Shown here: positions 5,325 through 23,074 of the stretch, piece after piece
How positions within the stretch are numbered: the stretch's first letter is position 1
Layout of the letters: every line of letters begins with the position of its first letter
NCBI GenBank assembly: GCA_963716175.1
Contig: OY970296.1
Coordinates: forward strand, 452,031-516,030
Direction of reading: 5' to 3'
From: an uncultured Armatimonadetes bacterium
GTDB taxonomy: Bacteria; Armatimonadota; Hebobacteria; Hebobacterales; Hebobacteraceae
Length of the DNA stretch: 64,000 nt
The notes under the pieces: model-generated
Databases searched by the model: none
Told to the model about the DNA's origin: nothing
The model's input: only the letters and a program-made list of their open reading frames with translations
Program-made: the position numbers and the translations under genes

Positions 5325-6104
5325 GTGAGCGGAATCGAAATCCGAGACCTATGGAAGCAGTACCGCCGCCCTCATCAGCGGGTGAGCACGCTGAAGGAGG
5401 CGATCGTCGCCTTCCTCCGGGGCCAGACGGGCTATGAGGAGTTCTGGGCGCTGAAGAGCATCTCTTTCACCGTGGACGCAGGAGAGGCAGTGGGCGTGGT
5501 GGGGCCCAACGGGTCCGGCAAGAGCACGCTGCTGGCGCTGATGGCCGGTGTGCTCACTCCCACCCGGGGCACGGTGAAAGTGGGAGGGCGCATCTGCCCC
5601 ATGCTGGAGCTGGGCACCGGGTTCCATCCCGACCTGACGGGCCGGGAGAACGTGTTTCTCAACGCCAGCCTGCTGGGTCTGAGCCGCCGGGAGACGGCTC
5701 GCCGCTATCATGCCATCGTGGACTTCGCGGAGCTGGGCGAGTTCATGGACGCGCCGGTGAGGACCTATTCCAGCGGCATGGTGGTGCGGCTCGGGTTCTC
5801 CGTGGCGATGCACCTCGACCCGGACGTGCTGCTGATTGACGAGGTGCTGAGCGTGGGGGACGAGCACTTCCGGCACAAGTCCTTCGAGCGGCTGGTGCGC
5901 TTCAAACAGGAGGGCAAGACCATCTTCGTGGTCTCCCATGATCTCGGGTCGGTGGAGCGACTCTGCGCGCGCGCGATCTGGCTGGACCACGGCCACATGG
6001 TCATGGACAGCCCCAGTGCCCAGGTGGTCCGGAAGTACCGAACCGCGGTGGAGGAGAGCGAGCGCGCGGCGGAGGCCGGGTCTCCCCATGCCCGCCTGGT
6101 CTGA
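5325..6104 (+). CDS. ABC transporter ATP-binding protein (Wzt/TagH-like, short form without a C-terminal carbohydrate-binding domain)
   Basis: Walker A GPNGSGKST, signature SSGMVVRLGFS and Walker B VLLIDEVLSVGD. GTG start 8 nt after the permease stop. Confidence 0.9.
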   Translation: MSGIEIRDLWKQYRRPHQRVSTLKEAIVAFLRGQTGYEEFWALKSISFTVDAGEAVGVVGPNGSGKSTLLALMAGVLTPTRGTVKVGGRICPMLELGTGFHPDLTGRENVFLNASLLGLSRRETARRYHAIVDFAELGEFMDAPVRTYSSGMVVRLGFSVAMHLDPDVLLIDEVLSVGDEHFRHKSFERLVRFKQEGKTIFVVSHDLGSVERLCARAIWLDHGHMVMDSPSAQVVRKYRTAVEESERAAEAGSPHARLV

Positions 6105-7533
6105 GCTCATCCGGACGGCCGGAAACGTCTTCCTCACCCCAGTCGCGCTCTCCGACCTGCCCGGCCGGGAGACCTGGAGGCGCGCGCTGGTGGTGGGGTC
6201 GGGAGAGCCGGCCAGCATTGCCCAGGCCGCCCAGGCGCTGCGCAGGGCCTGCCCTGCGCTCCTGGTGGATCCGCCGGGTCCCCCGCGGCTGTGGCGAATC
6301 CACCGACGCCGCTACGATGTCGTCTGCCTGCTCCTCACCGGCGAGGGGAGACGCAGGGAAAAGCTGGCGGGACTGCTTTCCGGGGCCCGTGTGGCTCTGG
6401 CCTGCAACCGGAGCGGCCGGTGGTACCAGGTCCACCGGCCGGCCTTCCGGCCGCTCAACCTGCGTTGGTGGGCCCGCCTGGTGCTGGCCGGCATGCTGTC
6501 CGGGTGCTACCTGCGGGTGATGCTGTGGGCTCGCGCCTGCGATCTGCTGTGGCGCTTCGGCCCCATGCCGGCGCCGATTCCGGATCCAGGACCCCCGGTG
6601 GGGCGAGGGACCACTTTCATCGTGCCCACCTACAACCAGCGCCACCTGATGGACTTCTGCTTGCCAGCCCTGGTGGCCGAGGCGGGCCGTCAGCACGAGG
6701 TAATGGTAGTAGATGACGCCAGTGCCGATGGCACGGCCGAGTACGTGCGCAAGCAATACCCGCGCGTGCGCGTGCTCCGGCTGGCGCGCAACCAGGGCTT
6801 CGCGGGGGCGGTGCGAGCCGGCATTGCAGCCAGCCGGACGCCGCTCTTCGCCTTGATCAACACCGATGTGCAGGTGCGGCCCGGGTTCCTGAAAGCGATC
6901 CTGCCGCACTTCGCGCGCGAGGACACCTTCGCGGTGTGCTCCCGTATCGAGCTGCCTGGCGGCTCGCAGATGGAGACCGGCAACGTGGCTCCCGCCTTCT
7001 CAGGAATACTGGAACCCTATCATCTGCCTCCCGATCGCCCCGGCCCGATCCTCTATGCCGGTGGGGCCTCATCGGTCTTCCACCGCGCCCGCTATCAGGC
7101 GCTGGGCGGATTCGAGACCATCTACCGGCCCATCTACTGGGAAGACATTGAACTGGGATACCGCGCCTGGCGGCGCGGGTGGCGTTCGCTCTTCGAGCCC
7201 GGGGCGTCGGTGTGGCATGAGCGCCGCGCGTGGGTCGGCCAGCGACTGGGCGATGTCCAGGCCAACGAGACCTTCCTGAAGAACGGCCTGCTCTTCGTCT
7301 GGAAGAACATACGAGACCGGGGGATGCTATCCCAGCACTGGGTCTACGTCTGTGCCAGGCTCTACCGGGAGGTGCTGGCCGGGGAGCGAATGATGTGCTA
7401 CGCGCTGCTGCGGGCGCTGCCGCTGCTGCCCGCCGCGCTGATCAGGCGGTGGCGAGGGCGACATCGCGGCGACCTGATGGACCGCGACATCCTCGCCCTG
7501 GCCACGCCCTCGCAGGAGCGCCACGGGCCGTGA
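6088..7533 (+). CDS. Family 2 glycosyltransferase with an N-terminal GT9-N-like module
   Basis: GT-A motifs TTFIVPTYNQRH and VVDDASADGT. Start taken at the ATG (6088) overlapping the ATPase stop; the track ORF begins further upstream in the same frame. The N-terminal ~170 aa form the recurring module described in findings. Confidence 0.8.
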   Translation: MPAWSELIRTAGNVFLTPVALSDLPGRETWRRALVVGSGEPASIAQAAQALRRACPALLVDPPGPPRLWRIHRRRYDVVCLLLTGEGRRREKLAGLLSGARVALACNRSGRWYQVHRPAFRPLNLRWWARLVLAGMLSGCYLRVMLWARACDLLWRFGPMPAPIPDPGPPVGRGTTFIVPTYNQRHLMDFCLPALVAEAGRQHEVMVVDDASADGTAEYVRKQYPRVRVLRLARNQGFAGAVRAGIAASRTPLFALINTDVQVRPGFLKAILPHFAREDTFAVCSRIELPGGSQMETGNVAPAFSGILEPYHLPPDRPGPILYAGGASSVFHRARYQALGGFETIYRPIYWEDIELGYRAWRRGWRSLFEPGASVWHERRAWVGQRLGDVQANETFLKNGLLFVWKNIRDRGMLSQHWVYVCARLYREVLAGERMMCYALLRALPLLPAALIRRWRGRHRGDLMDRDILALATPSQERHGP

Positions 7534-9260
7534 GGATCCTTTTCGTCAGCCCCTTCCTCCCCTATCCGCCCACGGCTGGCGGCCACGCGCTGATCTGGGG
7601 CTGGCTGCGGCGCCTTGCCAGCAAGCACGAGATCGCGTTCGTGGGATTCTGCGAGCGAGAGGCGGACGCGGTGGGCGCCGACGAGGTGGCGAAGCACTGC
7701 GCCAGCATGCGAATACGTCTCCGCCGGCCGACGCCGCATGCCTACAGCTCCTTCGCGCAGGTCCCCCGATGGGTGAGCGAGTTCTTCTCGGCAGAGCTAG
7801 CAAGTGACCTGCGCGCGCTGGCGCGAGATTTCAGGCCGGAGGTGGCGCAGTTTCTGAGCACCAACATGGCGCAGTATGCGCGCGCGGTTGATGCCGCGCA
7901 TGTCATCACCGCGGTTGACGTCTCTTTTGTCGCCCATCGTAGGCGGATCGCAGCCGCGCGCGGACTCGAGCGTCTCCAGGCCCGGCTGGAGTGGCTGCGC
8001 ATGCTGCGCTATGAGGCGTCCGTCTTTCGCCGCGCCGATCACGTGATCGCAATGTCGCTCCGAGATGCAGAGATCATCAGGGCCGTCTCGCCTCGGGTGC
8101 CGAGCACCATCGTGCCTCCCGGCGTGGACCGGGAACTGCTCGCGCCCCGGCCGCGCCGGCCGGGGCCAGGCAGAGTGCTCTACCTGGGCCAGATGGAGCA
8201 CTTCCCCAACCTCGATGGTCTGCTCTTCCTCTATCGAGAGATCTGGCCCCGGGTTCGGCGCGCTCATCCAGAAGCTCGTCTCACCGTGGCCGGCCGCGGC
8301 GCGCGGGAGGAGCTGGCGCGCGTCGCGCCGCAGACCCTCGCTGCCATGGAGAGCGACCAGAGTGTGGACCTGGCGGGATTCGTGCCCGACCTCCAGGCGA
8401 CCATGGATCTCACCGCGGTCATGGCCGCGCCCCTGCGACTGGGATCGGGCGTGCGCACCAAGGTGATCGAGGCGATGGCCGCGGGGCTGCCGGTGGTGAC
8501 AACCACCCGGGGCGCGGAGGGCCTGGCGGTTGCGCACGAACGCGAGCTGCTCATCGCGGACGAGCCAGAGCAGTTCGCGCGGGAGCTGGTGCGCCTGCTC
8601 CGAGATCCGGAGCTGCAGGCGCGACTCTCCCGGGCCGGCCGCGAGCTGGCAGCTCGCGAGCATGACAACGATCAACTGGCGGCGCGGCTGGAGCGGGCCT
8701 TGATGGCAGCGGCAGGGTCTGCAGGGCGGGCACGTCTCGCATGCCCGCCGCAGGACGGCGAGGCGCGGGAGATGAGAGTCCTGATCCGATACCTCGCCGG
8801 CTATGTCTTCGACTTCTTCCGGGAGCGGGTGACCGCTGACGATTTCCGCGGCGAGCGCGTGCGCCGCGTCCTGGCGACGGCCGCGCTGGATGCGCGCGGC
8901 CAGGCTGCGGTGCGGTGCATGTTCCCGCAGGCCGTCCTGTATGCCGTCACTGCTCGCGCCAGCCTGGCCCAGGTTCGCCGGGGTCGGTTCGAGGCGAGCT
9001 GCATCTCCATGGCCGGCGGCGGCATGCGAGAGCGCTTGCTGGCTCTGCTCAGCGGCGCCCGGCACCAGCTGCTCATCCCTTCGCCGGACTACATCTACCG
9101 TCTGGGCATGCGGCAGGGAGGCCCGGCCCTCGCCTGGGCGGTGATAGACCGCTTCCTGGTCGCACCTGTCGCTCTGATGTGGTTCATCCTACTGGTTTGC
9201 TGGCTCTATGTGAGCGGATTGGTTGAGCGGACCGCGCAGCCAAAGGCGCAGGGAGGGTAG
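7530..9260 (+). CDS. Family 4 (GT-B) glycosyltransferase with a C-terminal GT9-N-like module and a TM helix
   Basis: VRILFVSPFLPYPPTAGGHA N-terminus and an EX7E-type motif IEAMAAGLPVVTTTRGAEGL. GTGA overlap with the upstream stop. The C-terminal 160 aa are the module plus the hydrophobic helix PVALMWFILLVCWLYVSGL. Confidence 0.8.
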   Translation: MRILFVSPFLPYPPTAGGHALIWGWLRRLASKHEIAFVGFCEREADAVGADEVAKHCASMRIRLRRPTPHAYSSFAQVPRWVSEFFSAELASDLRALARDFRPEVAQFLSTNMAQYARAVDAAHVITAVDVSFVAHRRRIAAARGLERLQARLEWLRMLRYEASVFRRADHVIAMSLRDAEIIRAVSPRVPSTIVPPGVDRELLAPRPRRPGPGRVLYLGQMEHFPNLDGLLFLYREIWPRVRRAHPEARLTVAGRGAREELARVAPQTLAAMESDQSVDLAGFVPDLQATMDLTAVMAAPLRLGSGVRTKVIEAMAAGLPVVTTTRGAEGLAVAHERELLIADEPEQFARELVRLLRDPELQARLSRAGRELAAREHDNDQLAARLERALMAAAGSAGRARLACPPQDGEAREMRVLIRYLAGYVFDFFRERVTADDFRGERVRRVLATAALDARGQAAVRCMFPQAVLYAVTARASLAQVRRGRFEASCISMAGGGMRERLLALLSGARHQLLIPSPDYIYRLGMRQGGPALAWAVIDRFLVAPVALMWFILLVCWLYVSGLVERTAQPKAQGG

Positions 9261-11895
9261 ATGGGCCGCCAGAAACAATGGCGCGGGGACCAGGGTTGAT
9301 GCCGTGAGCCATATCCTTATCTGCGGCGCGGCGGGCTATACCAATCTGGGCGATGATGCCATCCTCTGGGGGATGCTCACTCAGCTGCGGCCAGCGGTCG
9401 GGGGCCGTGCCATCAGGGTGGCCGGGGGCCCAGGGCTGGCGCCGCTGCTGACCCTATTCGGGGCTGCGCCCGTCTCCTACATGGACCGCCCGGAGCTGGC
9501 CCGCGCCGTCGAGGAGGCCGGCCTGGTCATCCTCGGGGGCGGCGGGATGCTGTACGATGTGGATTACGAAGCCAGCCTCGCTCGGTTCTTCGGCGACCCG
9601 GCCGATCGTCCCTGGCTCTATGAGCTCGCCCAGATCGCAGCCGCAGCGCGGGTCGCGGCACGGCCGTTGATGCTGTATGGGATGGGAGCAGGCCCACTGG
9701 TGACAGAGGCGGCGCGGCGGGCGGCGCGGTTCGTCGCAGAGCAAGCCTCGGTGGTCACTGTCCGCGACGCCGGCTCGGCTGATCTGCTGGCGGAATGCGG
9801 CGTGCCGCGGGCCCACGTCCAGGTCGCTGGTGACCCGGCCCTGGCCGTGGCTCCCGGATCGGCGGAGAGCGCGGAGAGCTTCCTCAGGGCCACCGGCATC
9901 GCCGCCCGTCCCAGGCCCTGGATCGCGCTGAACCTGAGGCCGTTGGTGGCGGGCATGGGCATGCCCGCCCTACAGGAGGCACAGCTCGTTGCCCGGGCCG
10001 CAGAGCTGGTGCGCCGGCTCACCGACCGGCTCGCCGCCACGGTGGTGCTGATGCCATTCCAGCGAACCAGACACGATGACCGGGAGGTCCTGGGCGCGGC
10101 GCTGGAGGCGGCCGGGAAGCCCGCTAACGCGCTGCTCGTGGCGCCACCCCCTCTGCCGCCCGATCTGGCGGCCGTGCTGGCGCGCTTCGATCTCGTGGTC
10201 GGGATGCGGCTGCACTCTCTGATGCTGGCCATGAACGGGGCCGTGCCCTTCGTCGGGCTCTGCTATGACCCCAAGGTGGCTGAGTTCGCTCGCGAGGCGG
10301 GCCTGGGCGAGTACCTGCATGCCGTTGATGAACTCGACCCGGAATCGGTCGCAGCTTCGTGCCAGCGCCTATTGAGCCGGCGCGCGGAGGCCTCGGGTCT
10401 GCTGGCTCAGCGCAACGAGCAGATGCGGACCGCTGCCGGGCTCTCGGCCGAACTCGCGGCCTGGCTGCTCGCCCGGAGGACCGGGCTCCCACAGGCGCCC
10501 CGCCCCCGCGGCGCGCGGTCTGCGGCCGCACCGCGGCCGGTGAGGCTGCCGCGGGTGCTGATGCAGATCCGGGCCGACTACCAGGACCTCCCAGGCGGCG
10601 ACACGGTGCAGATGACCCAGACCAGGCGCGCCCTGCAGGAGTTGGGGGTAAGGGCGGAGGTGAGCACCGAGGAAGCGCCTGATCTATCAGCATACGATCT
10701 CGTCCACACCTTCAACCTTGGGAGGCCGGGCGAGCCCTACAGGCACTGCCTGAACGCGATGTCACAGGGCAAGCCGGTGGCGCTTTCTACCGTCTACGCC
10801 GACTTTGGGGAGATGTGGGAGTGGGGCGACTCCGATTACTGGGAGCTGCCGCCGCCAGAGGTGGGGCTGCCGGTGCCCAGGAGGGCGCCGCCGGTGGGGC
10901 CAGTCGAGGCCCGCCGCCGGATGCGCTTGGAAGAGCAGCGGCAGGCCGCCATTGACTGGGCGACGGTCTATCTGCCGAATGGGCAGGGGGAGGCTGACTG
11001 GCTGCACGCCGCCCATGGTATGGACCTGAGCCGGACCGTGGTGGTGCCAAACGCGGTCGCGGACATCTTCTTCGACGCGCGGCCGGAGGCATTCGTGGCC
11101 CGCTGCGGGCTGCGGGATTTCGTCCTATGCGCAGCGCGGGTGGAGAAGCGTAAGAACCAGCTCAGTCTGGTGGCTGCCTTGCGAGGGACCGGCCTGCCTC
11201 TGGTGATCCTGGGGTGGGCGAACCCGGAGGCCTACCGCGATCTCTGCCGCCGCTATGCAGACGAGAATGTGCGGTTTATTGACGGGCTGGCCCACGAGGA
11301 GCTGCCTTCGGCCTACGCCGCGGCCAGGGTGCACGTGCTCGCCGGTTGGTTCGAGACCCCCGGCCTCTCCACCCTGGAGGCGGCCGCCGCCGGCTGCAAT
11401 GTCGTGTCCACCGACCGGGGGCTGGCGCGGGAGTACTTCGGCGACCTGGCCTGGTACTGCGACCCGGGCCGCATCGAGTCCATCCGGGAGGCGGTGCTGG
11501 CCGCCTACCAGGCCCCCCGGTCTGACCGCTTGCGGGACCACGTGTGCCAGCACTACACCTGGCGGCATGCCGCAGAGCGAACGCTGGAGGCCTATCAGCT
11601 CGCACTCGCCCTGCACCAGAGCGGAAGCGATCGCGATCGGCAGCCCGAGCTGCTGGCCGCCGCCCGGCGGCACGCGGACTGGCTGGCGCGGCTGGCCGCC
11701 GACCGTCAGTACGAGGCCGACCAGTTGCGCCAATGGGCCTCCGATTTGGACACGCGCAGGAAGGACCTGGAGGCGGAGGTGCAGCGGCTGCAGCGGGAGC
11801 TGGAACTGGTGACCTCGCGGCGGCTGTATCGGTGGTCGGAATCGGTGGGTCGTGCGGGCTGGGGCCTGCTTCGCGCTCTGAGGATCAAGCGGTGA
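9223..11895 (+). CDS. Polysaccharide pyruvyl transferase (CsaB/WcaK-like) fused to a GT4 glycosyltransferase, with a coiled coil and a conserved C-terminal tail
   Basis: N-terminal HILICGAAGYTNLGDDAILWGML resembles the PS_pyruv_trans signature. The C-terminal half carries GT-B motifs (RVEKRKNQLSLV ... ETPGLSTLEAAAAGCNVVSTD). The start may instead be the GTG near 9304. Confidence 0.8.
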   Translation: MSGPRSQRRREGRWAARNNGAGTRVDAVSHILICGAAGYTNLGDDAILWGMLTQLRPAVGGRAIRVAGGPGLAPLLTLFGAAPVSYMDRPELARAVEEAGLVILGGGGMLYDVDYEASLARFFGDPADRPWLYELAQIAAAARVAARPLMLYGMGAGPLVTEAARRAARFVAEQASVVTVRDAGSADLLAECGVPRAHVQVAGDPALAVAPGSAESAESFLRATGIAARPRPWIALNLRPLVAGMGMPALQEAQLVARAAELVRRLTDRLAATVVLMPFQRTRHDDREVLGAALEAAGKPANALLVAPPPLPPDLAAVLARFDLVVGMRLHSLMLAMNGAVPFVGLCYDPKVAEFAREAGLGEYLHAVDELDPESVAASCQRLLSRRAEASGLLAQRNEQMRTAAGLSAELAAWLLARRTGLPQAPRPRGARSAAAPRPVRLPRVLMQIRADYQDLPGGDTVQMTQTRRALQELGVRAEVSTEEAPDLSAYDLVHTFNLGRPGEPYRHCLNAMSQGKPVALSTVYADFGEMWEWGDSDYWELPPPEVGLPVPRRAPPVGPVEARRRMRLEEQRQAAIDWATVYLPNGQGEADWLHAAHGMDLSRTVVVPNAVADIFFDARPEAFVARCGLRDFVLCAARVEKRKNQLSLVAALRGTGLPLVILGWANPEAYRDLCRRYADENVRFIDGLAHEELPSAYAAARVHVLAGWFETPGLSTLEAAAAGCNVVSTDRGLAREYFGDLAWYCDPGRIESIREAVLAAYQAPRSDRLRDHVCQHYTWRHAAERTLEAYQLALALHQSGSDRDRQPELLAAARRHADWLARLAADRQYEADQLRQWASDLDTRRKDLEAEVQRLQRELELVTSRRLYRWSESVGRAGWGLLRALRIKR

Positions 11896-12968
11896 GACTG
11901 ACTGTCATCATCCCCACCTACAATCGCAGCGCGCTCCTGGGTAGGGCGCTGCGCCTGCTGCTGGATGAGCAGACCGCCGCGCCCAGCGACTACGAGCTTG
12001 TCGTGGTGGACGACGGCTCGACCGACGGCACCCCCGAGGTGGTCAAGGCCGTTGGCGCGCCGGAGTCGCGCCTGCGGTATTTCCGCCAGGAGAACCAGGG
12101 CCCGGCGGCGGCGCGCAACCTGGGCGTGCGAGAGGCGAAGGGCAAGATCGTCCTCTTCACCGGGGATGATTGCCTGCCCGACCGGCGGCTGATCGAGGAG
12201 CACCTGCGGGCGCATGATCGGAGCGGGGACGTGGGCGTGGTGGGGCATGTCGCCTGGCACCCCGACCTGGAGCTGACGCCGCTGATGCTCTTCCTCGATC
12301 AGGGAGCGCAGTTCGGGTTCGGGTACATCAACGACCCTGATCATGTGAGCGCCTGGTCGTTCTACACCGCCAACTGCTCGGTGCAGCGCCATTGGATCGA
12401 GGAGGTGGGTGGGTTCGACGAGGACTTCGAGAATGCGGCCTACGAGGACATCGAGCTGGCTTACCGCATGCAGCAGCGGGGCCTGCGTATCATCTACCAT
12501 CGCCCTGCGCTCACCTATCACCACCACGCGCCCACCCTGGAGGGACACCTGGTGCGCCAGCGTCTCTGCGGCCGGTCCTCGGTGATCTTCTGGCGCAAGC
12601 ATCCGGAGCTGAAGGAGGAGCTGGACATCGTCGAGGCGCAGCGACCCAGATATGCCCTTCAGTTCTTCGAGGCCGTGGGCGCCTATGCCAAGGCGCTGGG
12701 GGTGAGAGAGGTGCTGCGGCAGCAGATCCTGCTCAGGGAACAGGGCCAGGAGGCCGAGGGTGGCCCTGCCCCGGACCCCCAGGCCTGGGTGAGGGAGGCC
12801 CTGGGCACGGCCGACCCTGACAGAGAAGAGCTGATCCGTCTGCGGGCCGAACTCCGGGATATGGAGCAGGAGTGGCAGCGCGTCACCTCTCGCCGCCTCT
12901 ACCGATGGTCGGAAGCGGGGGCGCGGGCCGGGTGGAGCTTCCTGCGGCGGCTGGGGATCAGACCATGA
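11892..12968 (+). CDS. Family 2 glycosyltransferase (paralogue 1) with a coiled coil and a conserved C-terminal tail
   Basis: VRLTVIIPTYNRS and VVVDDGSTDGT (GT-A). GTGA overlap. Ends with the shared tail motif (see findings). Confidence 0.85.
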   Translation: MRLTVIIPTYNRSALLGRALRLLLDEQTAAPSDYELVVVDDGSTDGTPEVVKAVGAPESRLRYFRQENQGPAAARNLGVREAKGKIVLFTGDDCLPDRRLIEEHLRAHDRSGDVGVVGHVAWHPDLELTPLMLFLDQGAQFGFGYINDPDHVSAWSFYTANCSVQRHWIEEVGGFDEDFENAAYEDIELAYRMQQRGLRIIYHRPALTYHHHAPTLEGHLVRQRLCGRSSVIFWRKHPELKEELDIVEAQRPRYALQFFEAVGAYAKALGVREVLRQQILLREQGQEAEGGPAPDPQAWVREALGTADPDREELIRLRAELRDMEQEWQRVTSRRLYRWSEAGARAGWSFLRRLGIRP

Positions 12969-14062: not shown

Positions 14063-15702
14063 TGCCGACCGCATCGGTCGTCCTCCTCAACTGGAACGGA
14101 GCTCATCTGCTGCCCACCTGCCTGGCCTCGCTGCGCGCCCAGAGCCGCCCACCGGCGGAGATCATCATGCCGGACAACGGCTCCACCGACGGCTCCCTGG
14201 AGCTGGTGGCGAGGCGCTATCCTGAGGTGCGGGTCATCCGGTTTCCGCGGAATATGGGATTCTGCCTGGCCATGAACGCGGGGATGGAGGCCAGCCACGG
14301 CGAGTTCATCCTCTCGCTCAACAACGATACCGAGCTCGACCAGCATTGCCTCCACGAGCTGGTGTCCGCCATGCGGTCCGATCCCGGGCTGGGGATGTGT
14401 GCGCCCAAGATGATCTACTATGACGACCCCGGGTTGATCAACTCCGCCGGACATGCCTGCGGCCCCGATGGGGTGGTGGTGGACATCGGCCGGGGGCAGA
14501 GAGACGGGAAATGGTTCCGCCATCCCCGGGAGGTGCTGGGCGCCTGCGCGGGCGCGGCCCTCTACCGCCGGGAGATGCTGGCCCAGGTGGGGCTGTTCGA
14601 TCCCGACTTCTTCATCAGCTATGAAGACGCCGACCTGAGCTGGCGGGCGCAGTGGGCGGGGTGGCGTGCGCGCTATGTGCCGACCGCAGTGGTACGGCAC
14701 CGGGAGGGAGTCTCGCGAGGAATCCGCAGCCGTCGCGCGGTGTTCCTGGGGATGCGCAACAGCGTCCACGTATGGACCAAGGACTGGCCGCTGTCCTCTC
14801 TCTGGCATCATCTGCCCGCGATCTGGCGCGGCTGGCGCGCCGCTGCCTTGGAGCTGACGCGCCGGGGTGAGGCCGGGGTGGTGGCGGCGGCGACCTGGGA
14901 CGCGCTGGCGCAGACGCCGCGCATGCTGAACCGGAGGCGGCGGATCGGGCGCAGCAGGTCGGTCGCAGCCAGCAGGTTCGAGGCATTGCTGGAGATGGGC
15001 CGCCACCACACTCGTGGCGATTCTGAGCGACGCGAGGAATCGCCTGCCCTGGACAGCGGGGGCGCTTTAGCGCCCCCGCCCGCGTGCCGCCGGAGGAATG
15101 AACCCGTGCCGACGCGCATCCTCGCCATCTCGCTGGTCCCGCCGGAGACGTTCGCCCGAATATTGCGGGCGGTGCGCGACCAGTATCCAGAGGGGGAACT
15201 GGTGGCATTGCTCGGTTCCGAGGGGCGCTATGACAGCGCCGACGAGGTCATGCTCTGGCGATCCTCCGGCGCCCGAAGGCTGATCAAGGAGCTGCGGCGC
15301 CGGCGGCCTGACCTGGTGGTGGTGGCCCATGGCGGCGACCAGTGCCTGACCCGCGCTTACTGGAAGGCAGTGCTTTTGGCACTGCTGGCGGGAGCGCGGC
15401 AGCAGTTGCTCTGGCGAGACACCTGTAGGGTGGGCATGTCTCTGCATGCCCGCCGCCAGGGGGCGACGCCAGCGGTTCGCGCTTGCTCGAAGGCGGGATT
15501 CGTGCTGCGCGCAGCCGGCCAGGCGGTCGCCCAGTTGGCGGCCGAGGCCTATGTGGCCGCCACAGGCTTGCTGCTGGCGCCTATACTGGCAGCGGTCGCC
15601 ATCACCGATATCACTGAGTACTTGGCGCGGGCCGGGCGGCTGGGGCCGCCACGCGGCCAGCGGGAGAGAAGGAGCGTCCCCCGGCGGCGGCAAACTGGCT
15701 AG
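14062..15702 (+). CDS. Family 2 glycosyltransferase with a C-terminal GT9-N-like module and a TM helix
   Basis: VVLLNWNGAHLL and MPDNGSTDGS (GT-A). TAATG overlap. C-terminal module TRILAISLVPPETF...RRRRPDLVVVAHGGDQ...LLALLAGARQQL, then hydrophobic LLLAPILAAVAITDI. Confidence 0.8.
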   Translation: MPTASVVLLNWNGAHLLPTCLASLRAQSRPPAEIIMPDNGSTDGSLELVARRYPEVRVIRFPRNMGFCLAMNAGMEASHGEFILSLNNDTELDQHCLHELVSAMRSDPGLGMCAPKMIYYDDPGLINSAGHACGPDGVVVDIGRGQRDGKWFRHPREVLGACAGAALYRREMLAQVGLFDPDFFISYEDADLSWRAQWAGWRARYVPTAVVRHREGVSRGIRSRRAVFLGMRNSVHVWTKDWPLSSLWHHLPAIWRGWRAAALELTRRGEAGVVAAATWDALAQTPRMLNRRRRIGRSRSVAASRFEALLEMGRHHTRGDSERREESPALDSGGALAPPPACRRRNEPVPTRILAISLVPPETFARILRAVRDQYPEGELVALLGSEGRYDSADEVMLWRSSGARRLIKELRRRRPDLVVVAHGGDQCLTRAYWKAVLLALLAGARQQLLWRDTCRVGMSLHARRQGATPAVRACSKAGFVLRAAGQAVAQLAAEAYVAATGLLLAPILAAVAITDITEYLARAGRLGPPRGQRERRSVPRRRQTG

Positions 15703-15783
15703 GCCAGTGCCGCCGCGGCGGCCGCTTGCCGCGGCCTAGCCGCTGATGGGGCGGGGCCAGCAGACCGGAGTGACGGGAGAGCG

Positions 15784-16845
15784 ATGCGCGTTCTGGTTAC
15801 TGGGATTGCAGGCTTCATCGGCAGCCACGTGGCCGAGGGACTGGTCGCGGCCGGACACGAGGTGGTGGGGATAGACGATCTCGCCGGCGGGTTCAAGCGC
15901 AACGTGCCCGCCCAGGCGAAGTTCCTCCGGCTCGATCTGCGCGATGCCGCTGAGACCGAGCGCGTGGTGAGCGAGCATCCGGCGGACGTGCTCTGTCACC
16001 TGGCCGCCAATGCCCGCGAGGGCGCCTCTCAGTTCCAGCCCCGGGATGTCTGCGGCCGGAACCTGATGGCCTACGTCAATGTGCTGGTGCCGGCCATGCG
16101 CGGCGGAATGAAGAAGGTGGTGCTCTACAGCTCGATGGCGGTCTACGGCGATCAGCAGGCGCCCTTTGATGAGACTATGCCGCGCCAGCCGGTGGACATC
16201 TACGGGGTGAACAAGGCGGCAATGGAGGAGATCACCGGGATTCTGGCGGAGGTGCACGATTTCTCCTATACCATCATCCGCCCACACAACGTCTTCGGCG
16301 AGCGGCAGAGCCTGCGAGATCGCTTCCGTAATGTGGTGGCCATCTTCATGAATCGCATCATGCGGGGCGAACCGCTGTATATCTATGGAGACGGAGAGCA
16401 GACCCGGGCTTTTAGCTACATCGCGGACTCCCTGCCCGCCTTCCTGGCCGCGGTCGAGCTGCGGCCCGAGCTCGACCGGCAGGCCATCAACGTGGGTGGG
16501 AGAAAGGCGGTGAGTGTCAACGACTTGGTGCGGCTCGTGTGCGCCGCCTTCGGGGCCAAACCGGAGGTGGTGCACCTGCCCGACCGGCCTCGGGAAGTGA
16601 GGAACGCCTACTGCACCTGGCAGAAGTCCGAGGCGCTGCTGAACTACCAGGAGCACTACGATCTGGAGCAGGCGATTGGCCGCATGGCGCAGTGGGCCAG
16701 GATGATAGGGCCACAGCCCTGGAGCGAAGAGGAGCTGGAGCTGCCCAGCGCGAAGGCGCCTGTCATCTGGATGAGCGACGACCCGCCAGGCGAGATCACC
16801 AGCAGGCCCGCCACGCCGCCGGCGGGCAAGCCCGATAGCCCGTGA
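15784..16845 (+). CDS. NAD-dependent epimerase/dehydratase (SDR family, UDP-sugar epimerase-like)
   Basis: MRVLVTGIAGFIGSHV Rossmann motif, catalytic YxxxK region (SMAVYGD...YGVNKAAME), Pro-rich tail. Confidence 0.85.
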   Translation: MRVLVTGIAGFIGSHVAEGLVAAGHEVVGIDDLAGGFKRNVPAQAKFLRLDLRDAAETERVVSEHPADVLCHLAANAREGASQFQPRDVCGRNLMAYVNVLVPAMRGGMKKVVLYSSMAVYGDQQAPFDETMPRQPVDIYGVNKAAMEEITGILAEVHDFSYTIIRPHNVFGERQSLRDRFRNVVAIFMNRIMRGEPLYIYGDGEQTRAFSYIADSLPAFLAAVELRPELDRQAINVGGRKAVSVNDLVRLVCAAFGAKPEVVHLPDRPREVRNAYCTWQKSEALLNYQEHYDLEQAIGRMAQWARMIGPQPWSEEELELPSAKAPVIWMSDDPPGEITSRPATPPAGKPDSP

Positions 16846-19775
16846 GCGCTCCCCGTGCCAGCCTGATCATCTCCACCTGGAATGGCCGACACCTGTTGGA
16901 GACGTGTCTGCCGCGGGTGCTGCGCGCGGTAGAGCAGGCGGGTGGCGACCACGAAGTGATCGTGGTGGACGACGCCAGCTCCAATGACACGGTGGAGTTC
17001 GTCCGGCGCGAGTTCCCCCAGGTCCGGCTGTTGGCCCTGCGGCGCAACCTACGATTCGCGGGGGCGAACAACGCCGCCGCCCGGGCCGCCAGGGGCGAGG
17101 TCCTGGTCTTCCTGAACAACGACATGCTGGTCGAGCCGGACTGCCTGGAACCCTTGCTGCGCCACTTCCAGGATCTCACCGTGTTCGCGGTCACCGCCCA
17201 GATCGAGATGACGCCGCGGCGAGTGGCCGGGGAGGTGATCCGGGAGACGGGACTGGTGAGGGCGAGATTCGAGGACGGGCTGTTCGTGCTGCAGCACGAG
17301 GACGCGACCTCGCAGGAGCCGGTGCGCGTGATCTACGCGGGGGGCGGCTCCAGCGCCTGGCGGCGGGAGGTCTTCTTCGGACTCGGCGCATTCGGCCGCC
17401 TCTTTCGGCCTTTCTACTTCGAGGATCTCGATCTCTCCTACCGGGCCCAGAAGGCGGGGTGGAAAGTGCTCTTCGAGCCCGCCAGCCGCATGACCCACCA
17501 GCACAGACAGACCAATGCCCCGCGGAACTTCCCCGGCGGCTACGTGGACTTGATCTTCGGCAAGAATGGCCTGCTCTTCACGTGGAAGGCACTCACCGAT
17601 CCTGACCTGCTGAGCGCTCATTTCCGGGGGCTCTGGCGCAGGCTGATGCGCTCCCGCGCACACCCGCGGCTGGGGGCCTGCTTCCTGCGCGCGGCGGCCC
17701 AGTTGCCCGAGCTATTAGTGAAACGCCAGCAGGCACGAGCGCAGATGGCGCTCTCCGACAAGGAGGTGCTGCGGCTGGGCGCCAGCCCCCCGCCGCCGGA
17801 GGCGGCCGACGGCGGCGAGCTGCCATATGGCTCTGACGGCACCGGCAAGCGCCTGCTGGTGATCGGGTTCTCGCCCCTGCCCTTCGAGCCCGAGCTCCGG
17901 CTGGGTGCGCTCTGCTTCCGCACCTGGCATCTGGCGCAGGCGTTACTGGCAGAAGGGCACGAGGTGACGGTGGTGGGAGTTCGGATGGCCGCGGCTTACC
18001 GGGAAGAGGCGCAGCGTCCCTCGGTGCTGCGGTTCCGGGGCCGGCACTTCACCTACTACTCGGCCACGCACGCCGCCTTTGAGCCCTCCCCGCGGCCGGC
18101 GGGCAAGGGCAGTGACCTGCTCTCGCGCATCTGCGACCAGTGGCAGCCTGATGGGATCGTCGCCGTCCACGCCTACGGGGCCTGGGCGGCCTCGCGGCTC
18201 AAGACCGGGGCGCCGCTGTGGGCCGACCTGACCGGCTACGCGATGGCGGAAGCCCAGGCGCGCGCGGGCCTGGAGGGCAGCGACGCTCCCATGGCCGAGG
18301 CCTGGCAGCAGGAGCGGGCCGCCCTGGCGCGGGCCGACGTGTTCTCTGTGGTCACGCAGCGCCAGAAGTACGCGCTGATCGGCGAGCTCTTCGCCATCGG
18401 GCGACTGGGAGCCGCGAACTGCGGCGAAGACCGTGTCCATGATATTCCGCTCGCCATCGAGAACCTGCCCTATCGTCATCGGCAGGTGGTGCTGCGAGGG
18501 AAGCTGGTGGGAGAGGACGACTTCGTGATCCTGTGGGCCGGGGGCTACAACACCTGGACGGATGTAGACACGCTCTTCCAGGGGCTGACCGCGGCGATGC
18601 GGCAGCATCCTGGCATCAGGTTCGTTTCCCTGGGGGGCGCGCTGCCGGGTCGGGATGAGCAGACCTTCTATCGCTTTCGCCAGCAGGTCGAGGAAAGCGA
18701 GCTGAGCGGCCGCTTCGTCTTCACCGGCTGGGTGCCCAACGAGGAGGTGCCCAACTACTACTTCGAGAGTGATGTCGGGATCAACATTGATCGCTTCAGC
18801 TACGAGATGCTGATCGGGTGCCGCTACCGCATCCTCGACATGCTGCGCGCCGGGCTGCCGGTGATCACCACCCTGGGCACCGAGATCAGTCACATCGTGC
18901 GCGAGGAGCGGCTGGGTCTGACCTTTGCACCAGGAGACGCGCAAGGCCTGAAAGAGGCCATCCTGACACTGGCGCGAGACGAGGCGCTGCGGCGGCGCTG
19001 CGCCTACCGCGCCAAGGAGCATGTTTTCAGGCACCGCACGGTGGACCAGGTGATGGGGCCTCTGCGGCAATGGGCGCAGGCACCGGAGCGGTCCGCGGAT
19101 CGGATGCCTGTTGCGGCCGAGGCGGCGGGCGACGAGGCCCCGCGCTCTCTCCGCCTGCGAGAGCTGGCGCGATCAGTCACCGCCGGGCTGGCCGATATCG
19201 CGGCCCAGGCCTGGGTTCGGCGGCGCGGTACGCACGCCTGGGGGCTGGACCCGCGAGAGCCCCCACACGCGGTGCTGGTGATCCGGGCCGGGTCTCTCCT
19301 CCTGGTCCGGGAAGTGGTGGCGCGCCTCCGCGCACGCTACCCCGCAGCCGCGACCACGGTGCTGGCTCCCGAGGCCCTGACTGCGGAGACCGCCTACGAG
19401 ACCGGTGCCCGCGTGATCTCCGCGCCCGGCGCGGGGATGGTGAGCTATCGGGTCAGCAGGGCCGCCATCGGCCGGGTGCGGCAAGGAAGGTTCGACACCG
19501 TGGTGGTGGCCGGCGAGGGCAACCGGAGAGCCGAGCTGCTCGCGCTGCTCGCGGGTCCCGCGCGGCGAGTCGAGGTGCGAGACGATGGCGCCGCCCATGT
19601 CTTCTCGTTCGCCGCTTACAAGCCACTCGTCGTGCTGGCCATAGCCATCGCCAGCCTGCTGGAGAAGATCACGCTCACCGCGCTGGTGGGCCTGGTATGG
19701 GGAAGCATCCAACTGGAAGGGCGGCTGTGGAGGTTCCGCCAGCGGCGGGGCGCATCCACGCGCGCCACGCGGTGA
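16842..19775 (+). CDS. Tandem GT2-GT4 fusion glycosyltransferase (977 aa) with a C-terminal GT9-N-like module and a TM helix
   Basis: N-terminal GT-A (LIISTWNGRHLL, VVDDASSNDT); central GT-B (KRLLVIGFSPLPFE ... GLPVITTLGTE); C-terminal module HAVLVIRAGSLLLV...RQGRFDTVVVAGEGN...LLALLAGPARRV; hydrophobic helix VVLAIAIASLLEKITLTALVGLVWG. GTGA overlap with the epimerase stop. Confidence 0.8.
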   Translation: MSAPRASLIISTWNGRHLLETCLPRVLRAVEQAGGDHEVIVVDDASSNDTVEFVRREFPQVRLLALRRNLRFAGANNAAARAARGEVLVFLNNDMLVEPDCLEPLLRHFQDLTVFAVTAQIEMTPRRVAGEVIRETGLVRARFEDGLFVLQHEDATSQEPVRVIYAGGGSSAWRREVFFGLGAFGRLFRPFYFEDLDLSYRAQKAGWKVLFEPASRMTHQHRQTNAPRNFPGGYVDLIFGKNGLLFTWKALTDPDLLSAHFRGLWRRLMRSRAHPRLGACFLRAAAQLPELLVKRQQARAQMALSDKEVLRLGASPPPPEAADGGELPYGSDGTGKRLLVIGFSPLPFEPELRLGALCFRTWHLAQALLAEGHEVTVVGVRMAAAYREEAQRPSVLRFRGRHFTYYSATHAAFEPSPRPAGKGSDLLSRICDQWQPDGIVAVHAYGAWAASRLKTGAPLWADLTGYAMAEAQARAGLEGSDAPMAEAWQQERAALARADVFSVVTQRQKYALIGELFAIGRLGAANCGEDRVHDIPLAIENLPYRHRQVVLRGKLVGEDDFVILWAGGYNTWTDVDTLFQGLTAAMRQHPGIRFVSLGGALPGRDEQTFYRFRQQVEESELSGRFVFTGWVPNEEVPNYYFESDVGINIDRFSYEMLIGCRYRILDMLRAGLPVITTLGTEISHIVREERLGLTFAPGDAQGLKEAILTLARDEALRRRCAYRAKEHVFRHRTVDQVMGPLRQWAQAPERSADRMPVAAEAAGDEAPRSLRLRELARSVTAGLADIAAQAWVRRRGTHAWGLDPREPPHAVLVIRAGSLLLVREVVARLRARYPAAATTVLAPEALTAETAYETGARVISAPGAGMVSYRVSRAAIGRVRQGRFDTVVVAGEGNRRAELLALLAGPARRVEVRDDGAAHVFSFAAYKPLVVLAIAIASLLEKITLTALVGLVWGSIQLEGRLWRFRQRRGASTRATR

Positions 19776-19787
19776 GGACGGAGACCG

Positions 19788-20423
19788 ATGGCGCGGCCCG
19801 CGGTGTTTCTCGATCGCGACGGCACCGTGCTGCGCGAGCGCGATTACCTGACATCCGCGCACGAGATGCGGCTGCTGCCAGGGGCAGGAGCTGCGATCCG
19901 CCGGCTGAATGAGGCCGGCTTTGCGGTGGTGGTGATCACGAACCAGTCGGGGATCGCGCGGGGTCTGCTGAGCGAGCGCGACCTCGACCACATGCACCAG
20001 GTCCTGCGCCGGCGACTCGCGCGCTCGGGTGCACAGCTCGACGGCATTTACTACTGCCCCCATCATCCCGAGGCGCCGCTCCGGCGGTATCGCCGCCGCT
20101 GCGGCTGCCGCAAACCGGCGCCCGGCCTGCTACGCCGGGCAGCGCGGGAGCTGAACCTCGATCTCCCACGCTCCTTCGCCATCGGCGACAGCCCACGCGA
20201 CCTGGAGGCAGGGCGGCGCGCCGGTTGCCGCGCGATCCTGGTGCGCACGGGCTATGGCATGCTCACCGAGACCACCGTGAATGCCAGGGCCTTCGACCAC
20301 GTGGCGGACGACCTGCCCGCGGCCGTCACTTGGGTACTGGCGCAGAGGCGGCGGGCATGCAGAGACATGCCCACCCTACAGGAGAGGCAAAGGCGCACAC
20401 AGGCCCCATGCAAGCGACCCTGA
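19788..20423 (+). CDS. gmhB: D-glycero-D-manno-heptose 1,7-bisphosphate phosphatase (HAD-IIIA, GmhB-like)
   Basis: FLDRDGTV, VVVITNQSGIARG and the CxH...C...C zinc-binding insert (YYCPHHPEAPLRRYRRRCGCRKP) match the GmhB/histidinol-phosphatase-like family. Confidence 0.8.
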   Translation: MARPAVFLDRDGTVLRERDYLTSAHEMRLLPGAGAAIRRLNEAGFAVVVITNQSGIARGLLSERDLDHMHQVLRRRLARSGAQLDGIYYCPHHPEAPLRRYRRRCGCRKPAPGLLRRAARELNLDLPRSFAIGDSPRDLEAGRRAGCRAILVRTGYGMLTETTVNARAFDHVADDLPAAVTWVLAQRRRACRDMPTLQERQRRTQAPCKRP

Positions 20424-21349
20424 TCGTGGTCAACTACAATGGGCGGGAGCTGCTGGTGAAATCCGTGCCCGCGGCCCTCGAGGCCGCGCGCCAGGCCGGC
20501 GGTCACCGCGTCGTGGTGGCCAATGACGGCAGCACGGATGACAGCCTCCACTATCTGCCTACCACTCACCCGGAGGTGGATGTGCTCGCCCTTCCCCACC
20601 GCGGCTTCGGCGCCACCTGCAACGCGGCCGTGGCGGCCGCGCAGACAGATGCCGTCCTGCTGCTGAACAGCGATGTCGTGGTCGCCCCGGATTTCCTGCC
20701 GCCCCTGCTTGAGGACCTGACGGGGCGTGATGTCTTCGCGGTCGGAGGCAAGTTCCTCAATCCGGATGGCTCGTTGACCGACGCCCTGGGCAATCGCACC
20801 TCGTGCCAGTGGCGCCGCGGCCTGCCCTACATCCACCACGAGACCGACCCCGCGCTGCTCGCAGCAACTTGTCCCCAGCTCTATGCCAATGGCGCCATGA
20901 TGGCCTTCTGGCGAGATAAGTGGCTCGCGCTCGGCGGCTTCGATCCCCTCTATCGGCCGTTCTACTGGGAGGATGCCGATCTGGGCTATCGCGCCTGGGG
21001 ACGTGGCTGGCGCGTGCTCTACGAACCGGCGAGCGTGGTCTTCCATGCCCAGGGCAGCACCATGAGGCGGACTCACCAGGTTCGCCACATCGAGCTGATG
21101 TCCGCCAAGAACGCCATCCTCTTCACCTGGAAGAATCTGCTCGATCCCGGCTTGCTGCGGCGCGCCCTGGCCGCTCAGGCCCGGTGGGCCGCGGATGACG
21201 TGCTGATCGGAGGCCTGCCGCCCCGCACCCGCGCTTTGCTGTGCGCCTCGCGCCAGCTCGCCGAGGCGGCCCGGGGCCGGGCCCGGGAAGCCCGCGAGCG
21301 CAGGCGCGCCGATTGGGAAATCCTGGCTGCCAGCGGAGCTGATCGGTGA
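20408..21349 (+). CDS. Family 2 glycosyltransferase
   Basis: MQATLIVVNYNGRELL, VVANDGSTDDS and the FYWEDADLGYRA region. Start at the internal ATG overlapping the gmhB 3' end by ~16 nt. Confidence 0.8.
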   Translation: MQATLIVVNYNGRELLVKSVPAALEAARQAGGHRVVVANDGSTDDSLHYLPTTHPEVDVLALPHRGFGATCNAAVAAAQTDAVLLLNSDVVVAPDFLPPLLEDLTGRDVFAVGGKFLNPDGSLTDALGNRTSCQWRRGLPYIHHETDPALLAATCPQLYANGAMMAFWRDKWLALGGFDPLYRPFYWEDADLGYRAWGRGWRVLYEPASVVFHAQGSTMRRTHQVRHIELMSAKNAILFTWKNLLDPGLLRRALAAQARWAADDVLIGGLPPRTRALLCASRQLAEAARGRAREARERRRADWEILAASGADR

Positions 21350-21855
21350 ACGCGCGGGGGCCCACGATACTGCTCTTGACGTTCGCGCGGCAGGGCGAGG
21401 AGGGTGCCATCCGGGGAGCGTTGGCATGGCTCAGCCAGCAAGCGCCCGGGGCCGAGTTCGTCGCGGTCGGGACTCCCGTGTCCGCTCCTGTTCTCAACCG
21501 CCTCGGCCTGACAGATGTGATCATCTTCGGGGACGGGGCCTCCACGCGGCAAGTGGTGGGAGAGGCAAGGGCGCGGCGGCCCAAGATCACCGCCATTGTC
21601 TACGGCGGCCCTGGCAGCAGCGCCCATCTCAAGCTGGAGCTGGTGGCCCTGGGCGCGGCCGCGCCGGTCACCTATCGGTTCGTGCCCGACACACCGCCGC
21701 GGCCAATCGGCAGATGGGCGCTGCTCGCGTCGGTCGCGACCAAAGCGCTGTCGGCGGCAGGCCGCCTGGTCGTGGGGTGCGTGATCTGCGGGATCGCGCT
21801 CTGCCGGCTGCGCCTGGCGCAGCTCCTGACGGGAGGGCAGCATGCGCGTGGCTAG
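21346..21855 (+). CDS. Stand-alone GT9-N-like module protein with a C-terminal TM helix (169 aa)
   Basis: PTILLLTFARQGEEGAIRGALAWLSQQAPGAEFVAV...RRPKITAIVYGGPGSS...LELVALGAAAPV, then GRLVVGCVICGIALC. GTGA overlap with the preceding stop. Confidence 0.6.
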   Translation: MNARGPTILLLTFARQGEEGAIRGALAWLSQQAPGAEFVAVGTPVSAPVLNRLGLTDVIIFGDGASTRQVVGEARARRPKITAIVYGGPGSSAHLKLELVALGAAAPVTYRFVPDTPPRPIGRWALLASVATKALSAAGRLVVGCVICGIALCRLRLAQLLTGGQHARG

Positions 21856-23005: not shown

Positions 23006-23074
23006 GCGCGATCCGCGCTGGCTGTGAAACTTCCTGCCAGCCATTTCCGTATCCCACAGTGGCGGAGGCCGTGG

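Follow-up and report, generated by a model that had tools for sequence, protein, structure and literature searches.

GT9-like N-terminal half-domains as putative membrane tethers in an Armatimonadota glycan cluster

A module of ~110 aa with an alpha/beta fold is present five times in a single Armatimonadota gene cluster for glycan assembly. Profile comparison traces the module to GT9 heptosyltransferases, as a diverged homologue of their N-terminal, acceptor-side half. It retains strands beta1-beta5/6 only and is joined to a membrane helix. We propose, with a probability of roughly 60%, that these GT9-N remnants are non-catalytic membrane tethers or adaptors that organise otherwise soluble glycan enzymes at the membrane.

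The host cluster, annotated with Pfam and NCBIfam, occupies positions 6088-23005 of the window, the 64,000-nt stretch of DNA analysed here, and lies on a single strand, the + strand, as do the modules, their helices, and the exporter genes described below. It is syntenic with Armatimonadota loci; a scan of GTDB representatives returned three loci only. Its order is GT2, GT4, pyruvyl transferase-GT4, three GT2, an epimerase, GT2-GT4, a GmhB-type phosphatase, GT2, the stand-alone module M5, and GT4. A Wzm-like ABC-2 permease (4381-5316) and a Wzt-like ATPase (5325-6104) have as their best NCBIfam matches a galactan/teichoic-acid export permease and ATPase, respectively, each below the curated cut-off. 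This pair places the cluster in an ABC-transporter-dependent glycan pathway. The module-less enzymes of the cluster carry a coiled-coil/'RRLYRWSE' motif at their C termini.

A module HMM, built in part from the window copies themselves, matches exactly five of the 584 six-frame ORFs of the window, at 6175-6435, 8859-9104, 15109-15423, 19263-19604, and 21361-21702. The sequence-only reading had placed these five segments correctly and had spoken of six copies in its title; that number is wrong for the window, where the next best HMM match has an iE of only 0.3 and was rejected as a sixth copy. A sixth paralogue, M2b, is confined to orthologous clusters, where it forms part of a radical-SAM protein missing from the window. 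M1 (6175-6441; iE 1.5e-18), a short variant without the beta3 region, forms the N terminus of the GT2 encoded at 6088-7533. M2 (8772-9116; iE 3.5e-17) and M3 (15109-15435) are C-terminal and in frame in the GT4 ORF 7530-9260 and the GT2 ORF 14059-15702, respectively, and M4 (19260-19610; iE 3.6e-29) is the C terminus of the GT2-GT4 fusion (16842-19775). M5 is a stand-alone protein of 169 aa (21346-21855), with the module at 21355-21702 and a transmembrane (TM) helix at 21733-21834; its first 4 nt are shared with the end of the upstream GT2 (20402-21349), so that start and stop overlap.

The likeness among the copies is beyond chance when judged from family alignments. Single sequences are too weak to link them, with BLAST between pairs of the five copies in the window reaching only ~28 bits and profile-to-single-sequence comparisons giving 2.6-91%, and ortholog alignments are needed. 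With small ortholog alignments as hhalign inputs, one per family (M1, M2, M2b, M3, M4, and M5), 7 of the 15 family pairs align at 91-99.4% probability (M1-M2 96%, M1-M4 95%, M2-M3 92%) and an eighth at 73%, which together connect all six families. Scores are 45-125 for the seven pairs at or above 91% and 36.5 for M4-M5, whereas the top probability and score among 150 column-shuffled controls are 7.9% and 23.8.

The relationship to GT9 emerges from profiles. Specifically, a profile was made of the window modules and close homologues, with no GT9 among its sequences. Run against 1.84 billion proteins, it picks up GT9 enzymes confirmed by Pfam, with E values from 1e-13 to 6e-8 (P0158 1.4e-13, P0175 2.7e-11, P0181 1.2e-10, P0214 5.6e-9; P0227, P0235, and P0236 ~1e-8), always through their N-terminal ~110 residues and in one register. 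In hhalign, the module profile aligns with GT9 N-domains at 98.9% (E 1.3e-17, 105 columns), the GT9 proteins in that comparison having been found by the module profile and confirmed independently by Pfam. Single families reach 94-98% each (M1 93.9%; M3 98.4%, E 1e-14; M4 98.0% over 118 columns; M5 97.4%). With GT9 profiles shuffled or reversed, the probability never exceeds 0.5%; among same-cluster controls, the GT4 N and C halves, the epimerase Rossmann domain, and HAD give 0.1-1.9%, and the pyruvyl-transferase N-half gives 18%. These matches bear out the earlier suggestion that the module is a truncated GT9 N-half. A GT9 profile is needed to make the link, since single PDB GT9 N-domains match the module profile weakly (2.3% and 6.0%; 23% for both together). 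PDB sequence searches with the M3 profile and the all-module profile yield no GT9 and nothing significant. Foldseek against the PDB ranks 1psw first by TM-score, although no match has an E value under 1e-3 and the yield is generic Rossmann folds only.

The known counterparts are WaaC/HepI, WaaF/HepII, and a Veillonella GT9 (PDB 2h1f, 1psw, 3tov; PF01075), whose N-terminal Rossmann-like domain is homologous to the module. Unlike them, the module lacks a nucleotide-sugar C-domain, has the Gly-Asp loop deleted or replaced (Gly-Glu in M5), carries an appended membrane helix, occurs in tandem or as a fusion with GT-A, GT4, radical-SAM, or methyltransferase enzymes, and is undetected by PF01075 or any NCBIfam model.

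GT-B enzymes bind the acceptor with their N-domain and the nucleotide sugar with their C-domain, and in HepI the catalytic base is Asp13, within the Gly-Asp of the beta1-alpha1 loop. At merely 160-200 aa, the module proteins and segments do not have this two-domain architecture. The donor-half model PF01075 matches no module at E<=10, and the module HMM finds no other GT9-like N-domain or complete GT9 among the 584 window ORFs. The loop that aligns with the Gly-Asp is shortened or replaced in M1, M2, M2b, M3, and M4. Because the C-half is absent and the loop is lost in five of six families, we infer that the modules are non-catalytic and that none is a glycosyltransferase on its own, as the sequence-only reading had supposed. 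That supposition holds less well for the stand-alone M5 family, in which an invariant Gly-Glu (G17-E18) aligns with the GT9 Gly-Asp, so M5 proteins may have a residual chemical role.

AF2 models of M3 and M5 each comprise a single alpha/beta domain and, after it, a long helix. For M3, pLDDT exceeds 90 over residues 1-105 and the helix is predicted at residues 121-177; for M5, mean pLDDT is 88.6 and pTM 0.78. Residues invariant within each family (P11, W50, H74, G75, and Y84-W85-K86 in M3; R15, E18, T43, Y86, H94, and K96 in M5) map to the loops into which beta1, beta2/3, and beta4 run at their C-terminal ends. Rossmann-like folds bind their ligands along the edge formed by such loops, which faces the cleft in GT-B N-domains. 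Their position there indicates that the modules probably bind something specifically rather than act as a passive spacer.

Each copy is accompanied by a helix, "TM or amphipathic" as first described, and both kinds occur. By Kyte-Doolittle scoring with a 19-residue window (KD19), four of the five are of TM grade (maxima 2.0-2.4): after M2 at 9123-9230 (2.44; ORF residues 532-567), after M3 at 15535-15627 (2.17, with an Arg-rich tail to 15702 and, in the family alignment, a conserved mid-helix Pro), after M4 at 19620-19703 (2.03; one or more helices, PLVVLAIAIASLLEKITLTALVGLVWG, then an Arg-rich tail), and in M5 (2.07). The helix between M1 and its GT2 catalytic domain (6442-6558; AFRPLNLRWWARLVLAGMLSGCYLRVMLWARACDLLWRF) is amphipathic or weakly hydrophobic, with a KD19 mean below 1.5 throughout and interspersed Arg.

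The earlier view of modules grafted onto unrelated glycosyltransferases (GTs) survives for two of the four apparent fusions. M1-GT2 and M4-(GT2-GT4) are kept in every relative, with orthologous N-terminal M1 modules in L001/L003/L006 and M4 orthologues in L001/L003/L006/L011; the M2 and M3 fusions are specific to the window. M3 is a separate gene of 166-204 aa in all relatives examined (18 stand-alone homologues), and M2 is the N terminus of a 663-665 aa radical-SAM/SPASM protein. In the window, M3 is preceded by GGAGG-9nt-GTG and M2 by GAGG-8nt-ATG, with the internal ATG at 8772; both are plausible start signals, each pairing a Shine-Dalgarno sequence with a start codon. A GT2 gene always lies directly upstream of M3 and of M5, with a 3-nt gap or a 4-nt overlap, and the in-frame joining of M3 to that GT2 in the window is a Rosetta-stone type of link. 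By tblastn, residues 4-153 of the L001 radical-SAM protein match window positions 8781-9230 at 52% identity; the radical-SAM core is absent at the M2 position in the window. The only candidate for a relocated orthologue of the radical-SAM gene, at 37430-38404, is a different, 27%-identical radical-SAM protein and was rejected.

The module is an unannotated domain family. Pfam and NCBIfam scans of whole proteins and excised modules find no model that covers it, and no module of this kind is described in the literature searched. At E<=1e-3, the family numbers 447 clusters (50% identity), with some genuine GT9 enzymes counted among them, and it includes ~90 stand-alone M5 homologues of ~170 aa, several from named Armatimonadota. 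A single module on a single enzyme is the commonest architecture; fusions of module plus TM helix elsewhere involve GT2 (P0219), GT4 (P0224, P0240), a methyltransferase (P0187), B12-rSAM+MT+GT2 (P0200), and rSAM/SPASM (P0143, P0164, P0172). Acidobacteriota-like genomes also encode tandem arrays, in which 2-7 modules share one C-terminal hydrophobic helix without a catalytic domain; a strict rule of six modules was dropped given this range. The arrays lie immediately downstream of a GT2-GT4 fusion homologous to window GT2a/c and GT4a, an arrangement that argues that several modules may work jointly in one complex.

The notion is that each otherwise soluble enzyme (GT2a, GT2b, GT2-GT4, GT2c, and, in relatives, the radical-SAM enzyme) would carry, or be translationally coupled with, one module that holds it at the cytoplasmic membrane face. 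The retained cleft-side face would bind the lipid-linked acceptor, other modules, or both, and the enzymes would then act as one membrane-bound complex beside Wzm/Wzt. Acceptor binding, membrane association, or complex assembly would each be consistent with the context, which includes a conserved gene-neighbourhood link between modules and GT2-GT4 enzymes. We infer the tethering, acceptor-binding, or scaffolding role and the cytoplasmic orientation.

Two points of topology count against tethering. A single-pass TM helix after M2 would put M2 across the membrane from M2b and the radical-SAM core in relatives, and M1 lies on the N-terminal side of its helix.

We offer only tentatively, and regard as doubtful, the idea that the modules are step-specific "readers" or docking domains. 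Each paralogue would recognise one lipid-linked intermediate through its GT9-derived acceptor face and present it to the attached GT-A, GT-B, or radical-SAM catalyst. Six anchored modules, or one Acidobacteriota-like array of 2-7, would line up at the ABC exporter as an ordered assembly line, a glycan counterpart of PKS/NRPS carrier and docking domains.

It is unlikely that the modules bind only each other, as a pure protein-protein scaffold or spacer that sets product geometry or chain length. The variable copy number (2-7) of arrays adjoining a putative GT2-GT4 polymerase and the six separate modules per cluster in Armatimonadota fit such a role, for which the WbdD coiled-coil ruler is a precedent (PMC3482155, PMC11231755); the family-own invariant residues on a classical ligand-binding edge and the prevalence of one module per enzyme speak against it. 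Membrane-associated scaffolds that assemble GT complexes are a known paradigm in ABC-transporter-dependent O-polysaccharide synthesis (PMC11231755). Like the modules, WbdD belongs to a Wzm/Wzt pathway, and the role proposed here is likewise to gather soluble GTs in a single membrane-bound complex (PMC11231755, PMC3482155). WbdD, however, has a coiled coil, a C-terminal amphipathic helix, and kinase and methyltransferase domains, whereas the module, a Rossmann-like remnant of GT9-N, carries a TM helix and has, by AF2 secondary structure, no coiled coil.

An Alg14-like split glycosyltransferase, in which the anchored N-half joins a soluble donor-binding GT-B C-half in trans to make an active enzyme, is improbable. 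Alg14 is a membrane-anchored GT-B N-half that recruits the soluble catalytic C-half Alg13 in lipid-linked glycan synthesis. The module, with its TM-grade helix in M2-M5, resembles it as an anchored, non-autonomous N-half on, in some cases, a separate polypeptide; the invariant Gly-Glu of M5 and the presence of a GmhB-type heptose-bisphosphate phosphatase in a window with no complete GT9 would also fit. Yet Pfam detects neither an orphan GT-B C-half within the cluster nor an Alg14 or Glyco_tran_28_C match on modules or cluster proteins, and it finds no Alg13-like C-half encoded nearby; all cluster GT4s are complete two-domain enzymes, the GD loop is gone from the five families other than M5, and arrays hold up to 7 N-halves with no C-half nearby. 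The module lineage is GT9-like, whereas Alg14/Alg13 are GT1/GT28-like; the module anchor follows the domain on its C-terminal side, the module partners are a radical-SAM enzyme and complete GT-A (GT2) or GT-B enzymes, and each cluster has five or six paralogues. Finally, a generic Rossmann-like domain, resembling GT9 only through Ala/Arg/Leu-rich, high-GC composition, is scarcely credible and already largely refuted by the E values and single N-terminal register of the GT9 matches and by probabilities of 98-99% for GT9, where shuffled or reversed profiles stay at or below 0.5% and other same-cluster Rossmann-like domains at 0.1-18%. The modules have neither the Gly-rich dinucleotide-binding loop nor the sequence relationship of NAD(P)-binding Rossmann domains.

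How soluble GTs are gathered at the membrane and ordered in ABC-transporter-dependent pathways is little understood beyond a few Enterobacterial models. In the family described here, half of a GT-B enzyme, the one on the acceptor side, is reused as an accessory to GT-A, GT-B, radical-SAM, and methyltransferase enzymes and in multi-copy arrays. If its role as tether, acceptor reader, or scaffold is true, the family would provide a testable, genetically compact model of how a glycan assembly line is organised, and a new rule by which many 170-aa proteins of Armatimonadota and Acidobacteriota now called "hypothetical" could be annotated.

A module of about 110 residues recurs five times in a glycan gene cluster of this Armatimonadetes bacterium. 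Specifically, scanning a module HMM over 584 six-frame ORFs, which represent all of the window, yields matches at 6175-6435 (M1), 8859-9104 (M2), 15109-15423 (M3), 19263-19604 (M4), and 21361-21702 (M5, a stand-alone protein). All five segments named in an earlier, sequence-only reading are thus present. That reading counted six copies; the next-best match among the 584 ORFs has an iE of only 0.3, leaving five in the window. Because single-sequence BLAST between copies is weak (about 28 bits), orthologues were gathered from syntenic loci and their family alignments were compared by hhalign, together with those of M2b, a sixth paralogue residing in a radical-SAM (rSAM) protein of relatives. The resulting probabilities are 96% for M1-M2, 95% for M1-M4, 92% for M2-M3, 99.4% for M2b-M3, 93% for M2b-M4, 97% for M3-M4, 93.5% for M3-M5, and 73% for M4-M5, versus a maximum of 7.9% for column-shuffled controls (n = 150). 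At the level of aligned families, the copies are true paralogs, and their likeness is not a matter of composition.

The evidence from sequence profiles that links the modules to GT9 glycosyltransferases is decisive, and their identity as homologs of the GT9 N-domain is secure. A profile of all module families matches the database protein P0111 (E 1.6e-7, 5.8 billion sequences). This protein, which gave the first link to GT9, represents the N-terminal part of a GT9 broken by a frameshift: its match to PDB 3tov has an E-value of 2.5e-11, it scores above the PF01075 cut-off, and a PF01075 ORF comes after it. At its locus (L012, 6001-8006), this GT9 is divided between two ORFs (195 and 473 aa); several genes on the contig are broken, and the split is probably an assembly frameshift. 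A second profile, A3, was built exclusively from the window modules and close homologues, with no GT9 included. Searched against 1.84 billion representatives, A3 returns 447 matches at E<=1e-3, among them seven Pfam-confirmed GT9 proteins: P0158 (1.4e-13), P0175 (2.7e-11), P0181 (1.2e-10), P0214 (5.6e-9), P0227, P0235, and P0236. P0158 barely exceeds the 22-bit PF01075 cut-off (22.4 bits, 8.5e-5); the other six have PF01075 E-values of 4e-14 to 2e-67. In all seven, the A3 match falls within the N-terminal ~110 residues of a GT9 unit. By hhalign, the module profile aligns with GT9 N-domains at 98.9% (E 1.3e-17, 105 columns), or 98.4% when restricted to N-domains with the PF01075 half directly behind, and single module families reach 93.9-98.4% each. 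With shuffled or reversed GT9 profiles, the probability stays at or below 0.5%. Other domains of the same cluster give 0.1-1.9% (GT4 N- and C-halves, epimerase Rossmann domain, HAD) and 18% (pyruvyl-transferase N-half). GT9 N-half homology, the central proposal of the sequence-only reading, is thereby borne out.

Predicted structures are compatible with this assignment. The AlphaFold2 model of the M3 family has pLDDT >90 over residues 1-105 and the element order b1-a1-b2-b3-a2-b4-a3-b5, followed by a 57-residue helix. Similarly, the M5 family (91 sequences; mean pLDDT 88.6, pTM 0.78) is modeled as b1-a1-b2-a-b3-a-b4-a-b5-b6 plus a 40-residue helix. Foldseek gives no significant match for the module; 1psw is best by TM-score and rmsd. 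In a separate structural comparison, the Rossmann domains of alcohol-dehydrogenase, CARF, and GT1 follow within one Z unit. Thus, taken alone, the modeled structure is Rossmann-like and GT-B N-half compatible, and nothing narrower.

What the modules have lost is equally informative. PF01075 does not match the modules, and downstream of each lies only a helix. In alignments, the 'xLGD' loop that follows beta1 in GT9 has been cut short or substituted in M1, M2b, M3, and M4; for M2, whose alignment with GT9 does not extend beyond the C-terminal half of the module, loop loss is judged from family alignments. Lacking a PF01075 match and having an altered GD loop, the modules are GT9 N-domain homologs without the defining features of a GT9 enzyme. 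M5 differs from the other families in carrying Gly-Glu at the catalytic Gly-Asp position, within an invariant 'RRGEE'. Its beta1-alpha1 loop 'FARRGEE' (residues 13-19, window 21382-21402) shows little or no variation across ~90 stand-alone homologues (alignment A4). Hence, the initial assertion that the C-half and GD motif are absent stands for the C-half in all copies and for the loop in M1-M4 and M2b, but not for M5. Alg14 provides a precedent for an anchored GT-B N-half like the modules; a role in an Alg14-like split enzyme is unlikely, M5 being the likeliest candidate for it.

The host cluster occupies window 4.4-23 kb, all on one strand, at about 67-70% GC. It begins with a Wzm-like permease and a Wzt-like ATPase, followed by a GT2 (6088-7533), a GT4 (7530-9260), a pyruvyl-transferase-GT4 fusion (9223-11895), three GT2s (about 11950-12968 in ORF 11544-12968, 12872-14062, and 14059-15702), an epimerase/dehydratase, a GT2-GT4 fusion (16842-19775), a GmhB-type HAD phosphatase (19788-20423), a GT2 (20402-21349), the 169-aa M5 ORF (21346-21855), and finally a GT4. 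Close homologues of its small ORFs bear 'Armatimonadota' names, and the metagenomic protein P0028 is near-identical to M5. The phosphatase scores 185.8 bits (cut-off 178) against the NCBIfam model for D-glycero-beta-D-manno-heptose 1,7-bisphosphate 7-phosphatase (GmhB). No complete GT9 was found within the window, and GmhB is the only heptose-pathway gene annotated in the cluster. If the product contained heptose, that would agree with the descent of the modules from GT9. The adjacent paralogous GT2 genes 11544-12968 and 12872-14062 share a C-terminal motif and correspond to a single 365-aa gene in relatives, an apparent tandem duplication. On the 3' side (23024-25811; 17774-20525 in the related cluster L001) lie genes for an ECF sigma factor, a zf-HC2 anti-sigma factor, and a large membrane protein whose orthologues contain a GH2_N-like domain. 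Their synteny is kept in all relatives, which suggests that the glycan cluster has dedicated regulation.

Three clusters, L001, L003, and L006, are orthologous to that of the window and keep its gene order except for the rSAM gene, M3, and other noted differences. In each, a 400-aa GT4 is followed by a radical-SAM/SPASM protein of 663-665 aa (L001 3422-5413, L003 3422-5416, L006 3370-5367), whose N-terminus consists of M2, a hydrophobic helix, and M2b ahead of the rSAM core. In the window, M2 alone survives, in frame behind the GT4 (8772-9260); both M2b and the core are lost. Thus, sister genomes have six modules per cluster and the window five. Another rSAM, 27% identical, is encoded at 37430-38404 on the minus strand. 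M3 is a separate gene of 166-204 aa in 18 of 18 homologues found, beginning 3 nt past a 323-aa GT2; in the window, a ~35-codon linker joins it in frame to the upstream GT2, with GGAGG-9nt-GTG retained. M1 (GT2 N-terminus) and M4 (GT2-GT4 C-terminus) are fused in every relative, and M5 is always separate, its start overlapping the stop of the preceding GT2. Of the glycosyltransferase fusions originally described, therefore, those of M1 and M4 are conserved, whereas those of M2 and M3 are window-specific.

The transmembrane (TM) or amphipathic helix expected after each copy is also found. Helices following M2, M3, M4, and M5 are TM-grade (Kyte-Doolittle 19-residue maximum 2.0-2.4) and lead into Arg-rich tails; that following M1 is amphipathic. 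In relatives, a single-pass helix after M2 would put M2 apart from M2b and the rSAM core. The M3 helix is basic on both flanks and has a conserved central Pro, features that would be compatible with a segment lying at the interface or re-entering the membrane. Modules occur on, or adjoining, exactly those enzymes without another membrane feature. The module-less enzymes (the pyruvyl-transferase-GT4 and two GT2s) end in a predicted coiled coil plus the conserved motif (V/T)SRR(L/F)YRWSE....GW.LLR.LG (11750-11895, 12880-12968, and 13960-14062, the C-termini of ORFs 9223-11895, 11544-12968, and 12872-14062), also present in the L001, L003, and L006 orthologues. With it, the cluster may have a second, different means of associating enzymes with the membrane or with a complex.

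Neither Pfam nor NCBIfam has a model for the module. Among the matches listed, the majority are stand-alone proteins of 160-210 aa. Other architectures are module-TM-GT2 (P0219), module-TM-GT4 (P0224, from a Vicinamibacterales MAG, and P0240), methyltransferase-module-TM (P0187), B12-rSAM-module-methyltransferase-GT2 (P0200), and one or more modules preceding rSAM/SPASM (P0143, P0164, P0172). P0175 and P0227 (502 aa each), like P0158, are bona fide GT9 proteins with an additional N-domain copy ahead of the complete two-domain enzyme, and may be evolutionary intermediates toward free N-half modules. Six proteins (P0129, P0204, P0160, P0166, P0199, and P0176, at least the last from an Acidobacteriota MAG) consist of 2-7 tandem modules and one C-terminal hydrophobic helix, 'FPFRF.YLL', and nothing else; each array module ends in an 'NEN.DCF(Y/F)F' hairpin motif. 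Two arrays, P0129 (locus L013, 9231-11741) and P0204 (L014, 6311-9373), lie directly downstream of a GT2-GT4 fusion whose GT2 half is 36-44% identical to the window's GT2a and GT2c and whose GT4 half is 28-31% identical to its GT4a. At one of the array loci, Wzm/Wzt and an rSAM/SPASM gene are close by as well. The pairing of module and enzyme set thus recurs across phyla.

We infer that the module acts as a non-catalytic membrane tether or adaptor, given the missing donor half, its placement at enzymes without a membrane feature, the alternative coiled-coil motif elsewhere, concatenation in other lineages, and the invariant residues particular to each family on the loop edge, the cleft face of GT-B N-domains. 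The notion is that the tether would bind the lipid-linked acceptor, partner modules, or both, and that such binding could assemble the pathway at the membrane. Scaffolds of the WbdD type are a precedent for scaffolding in ABC-transporter-dependent synthesis (PMC11231755). The module's fold and family are known; this variant of them is new and unannotated, and the use made of it is unusual.
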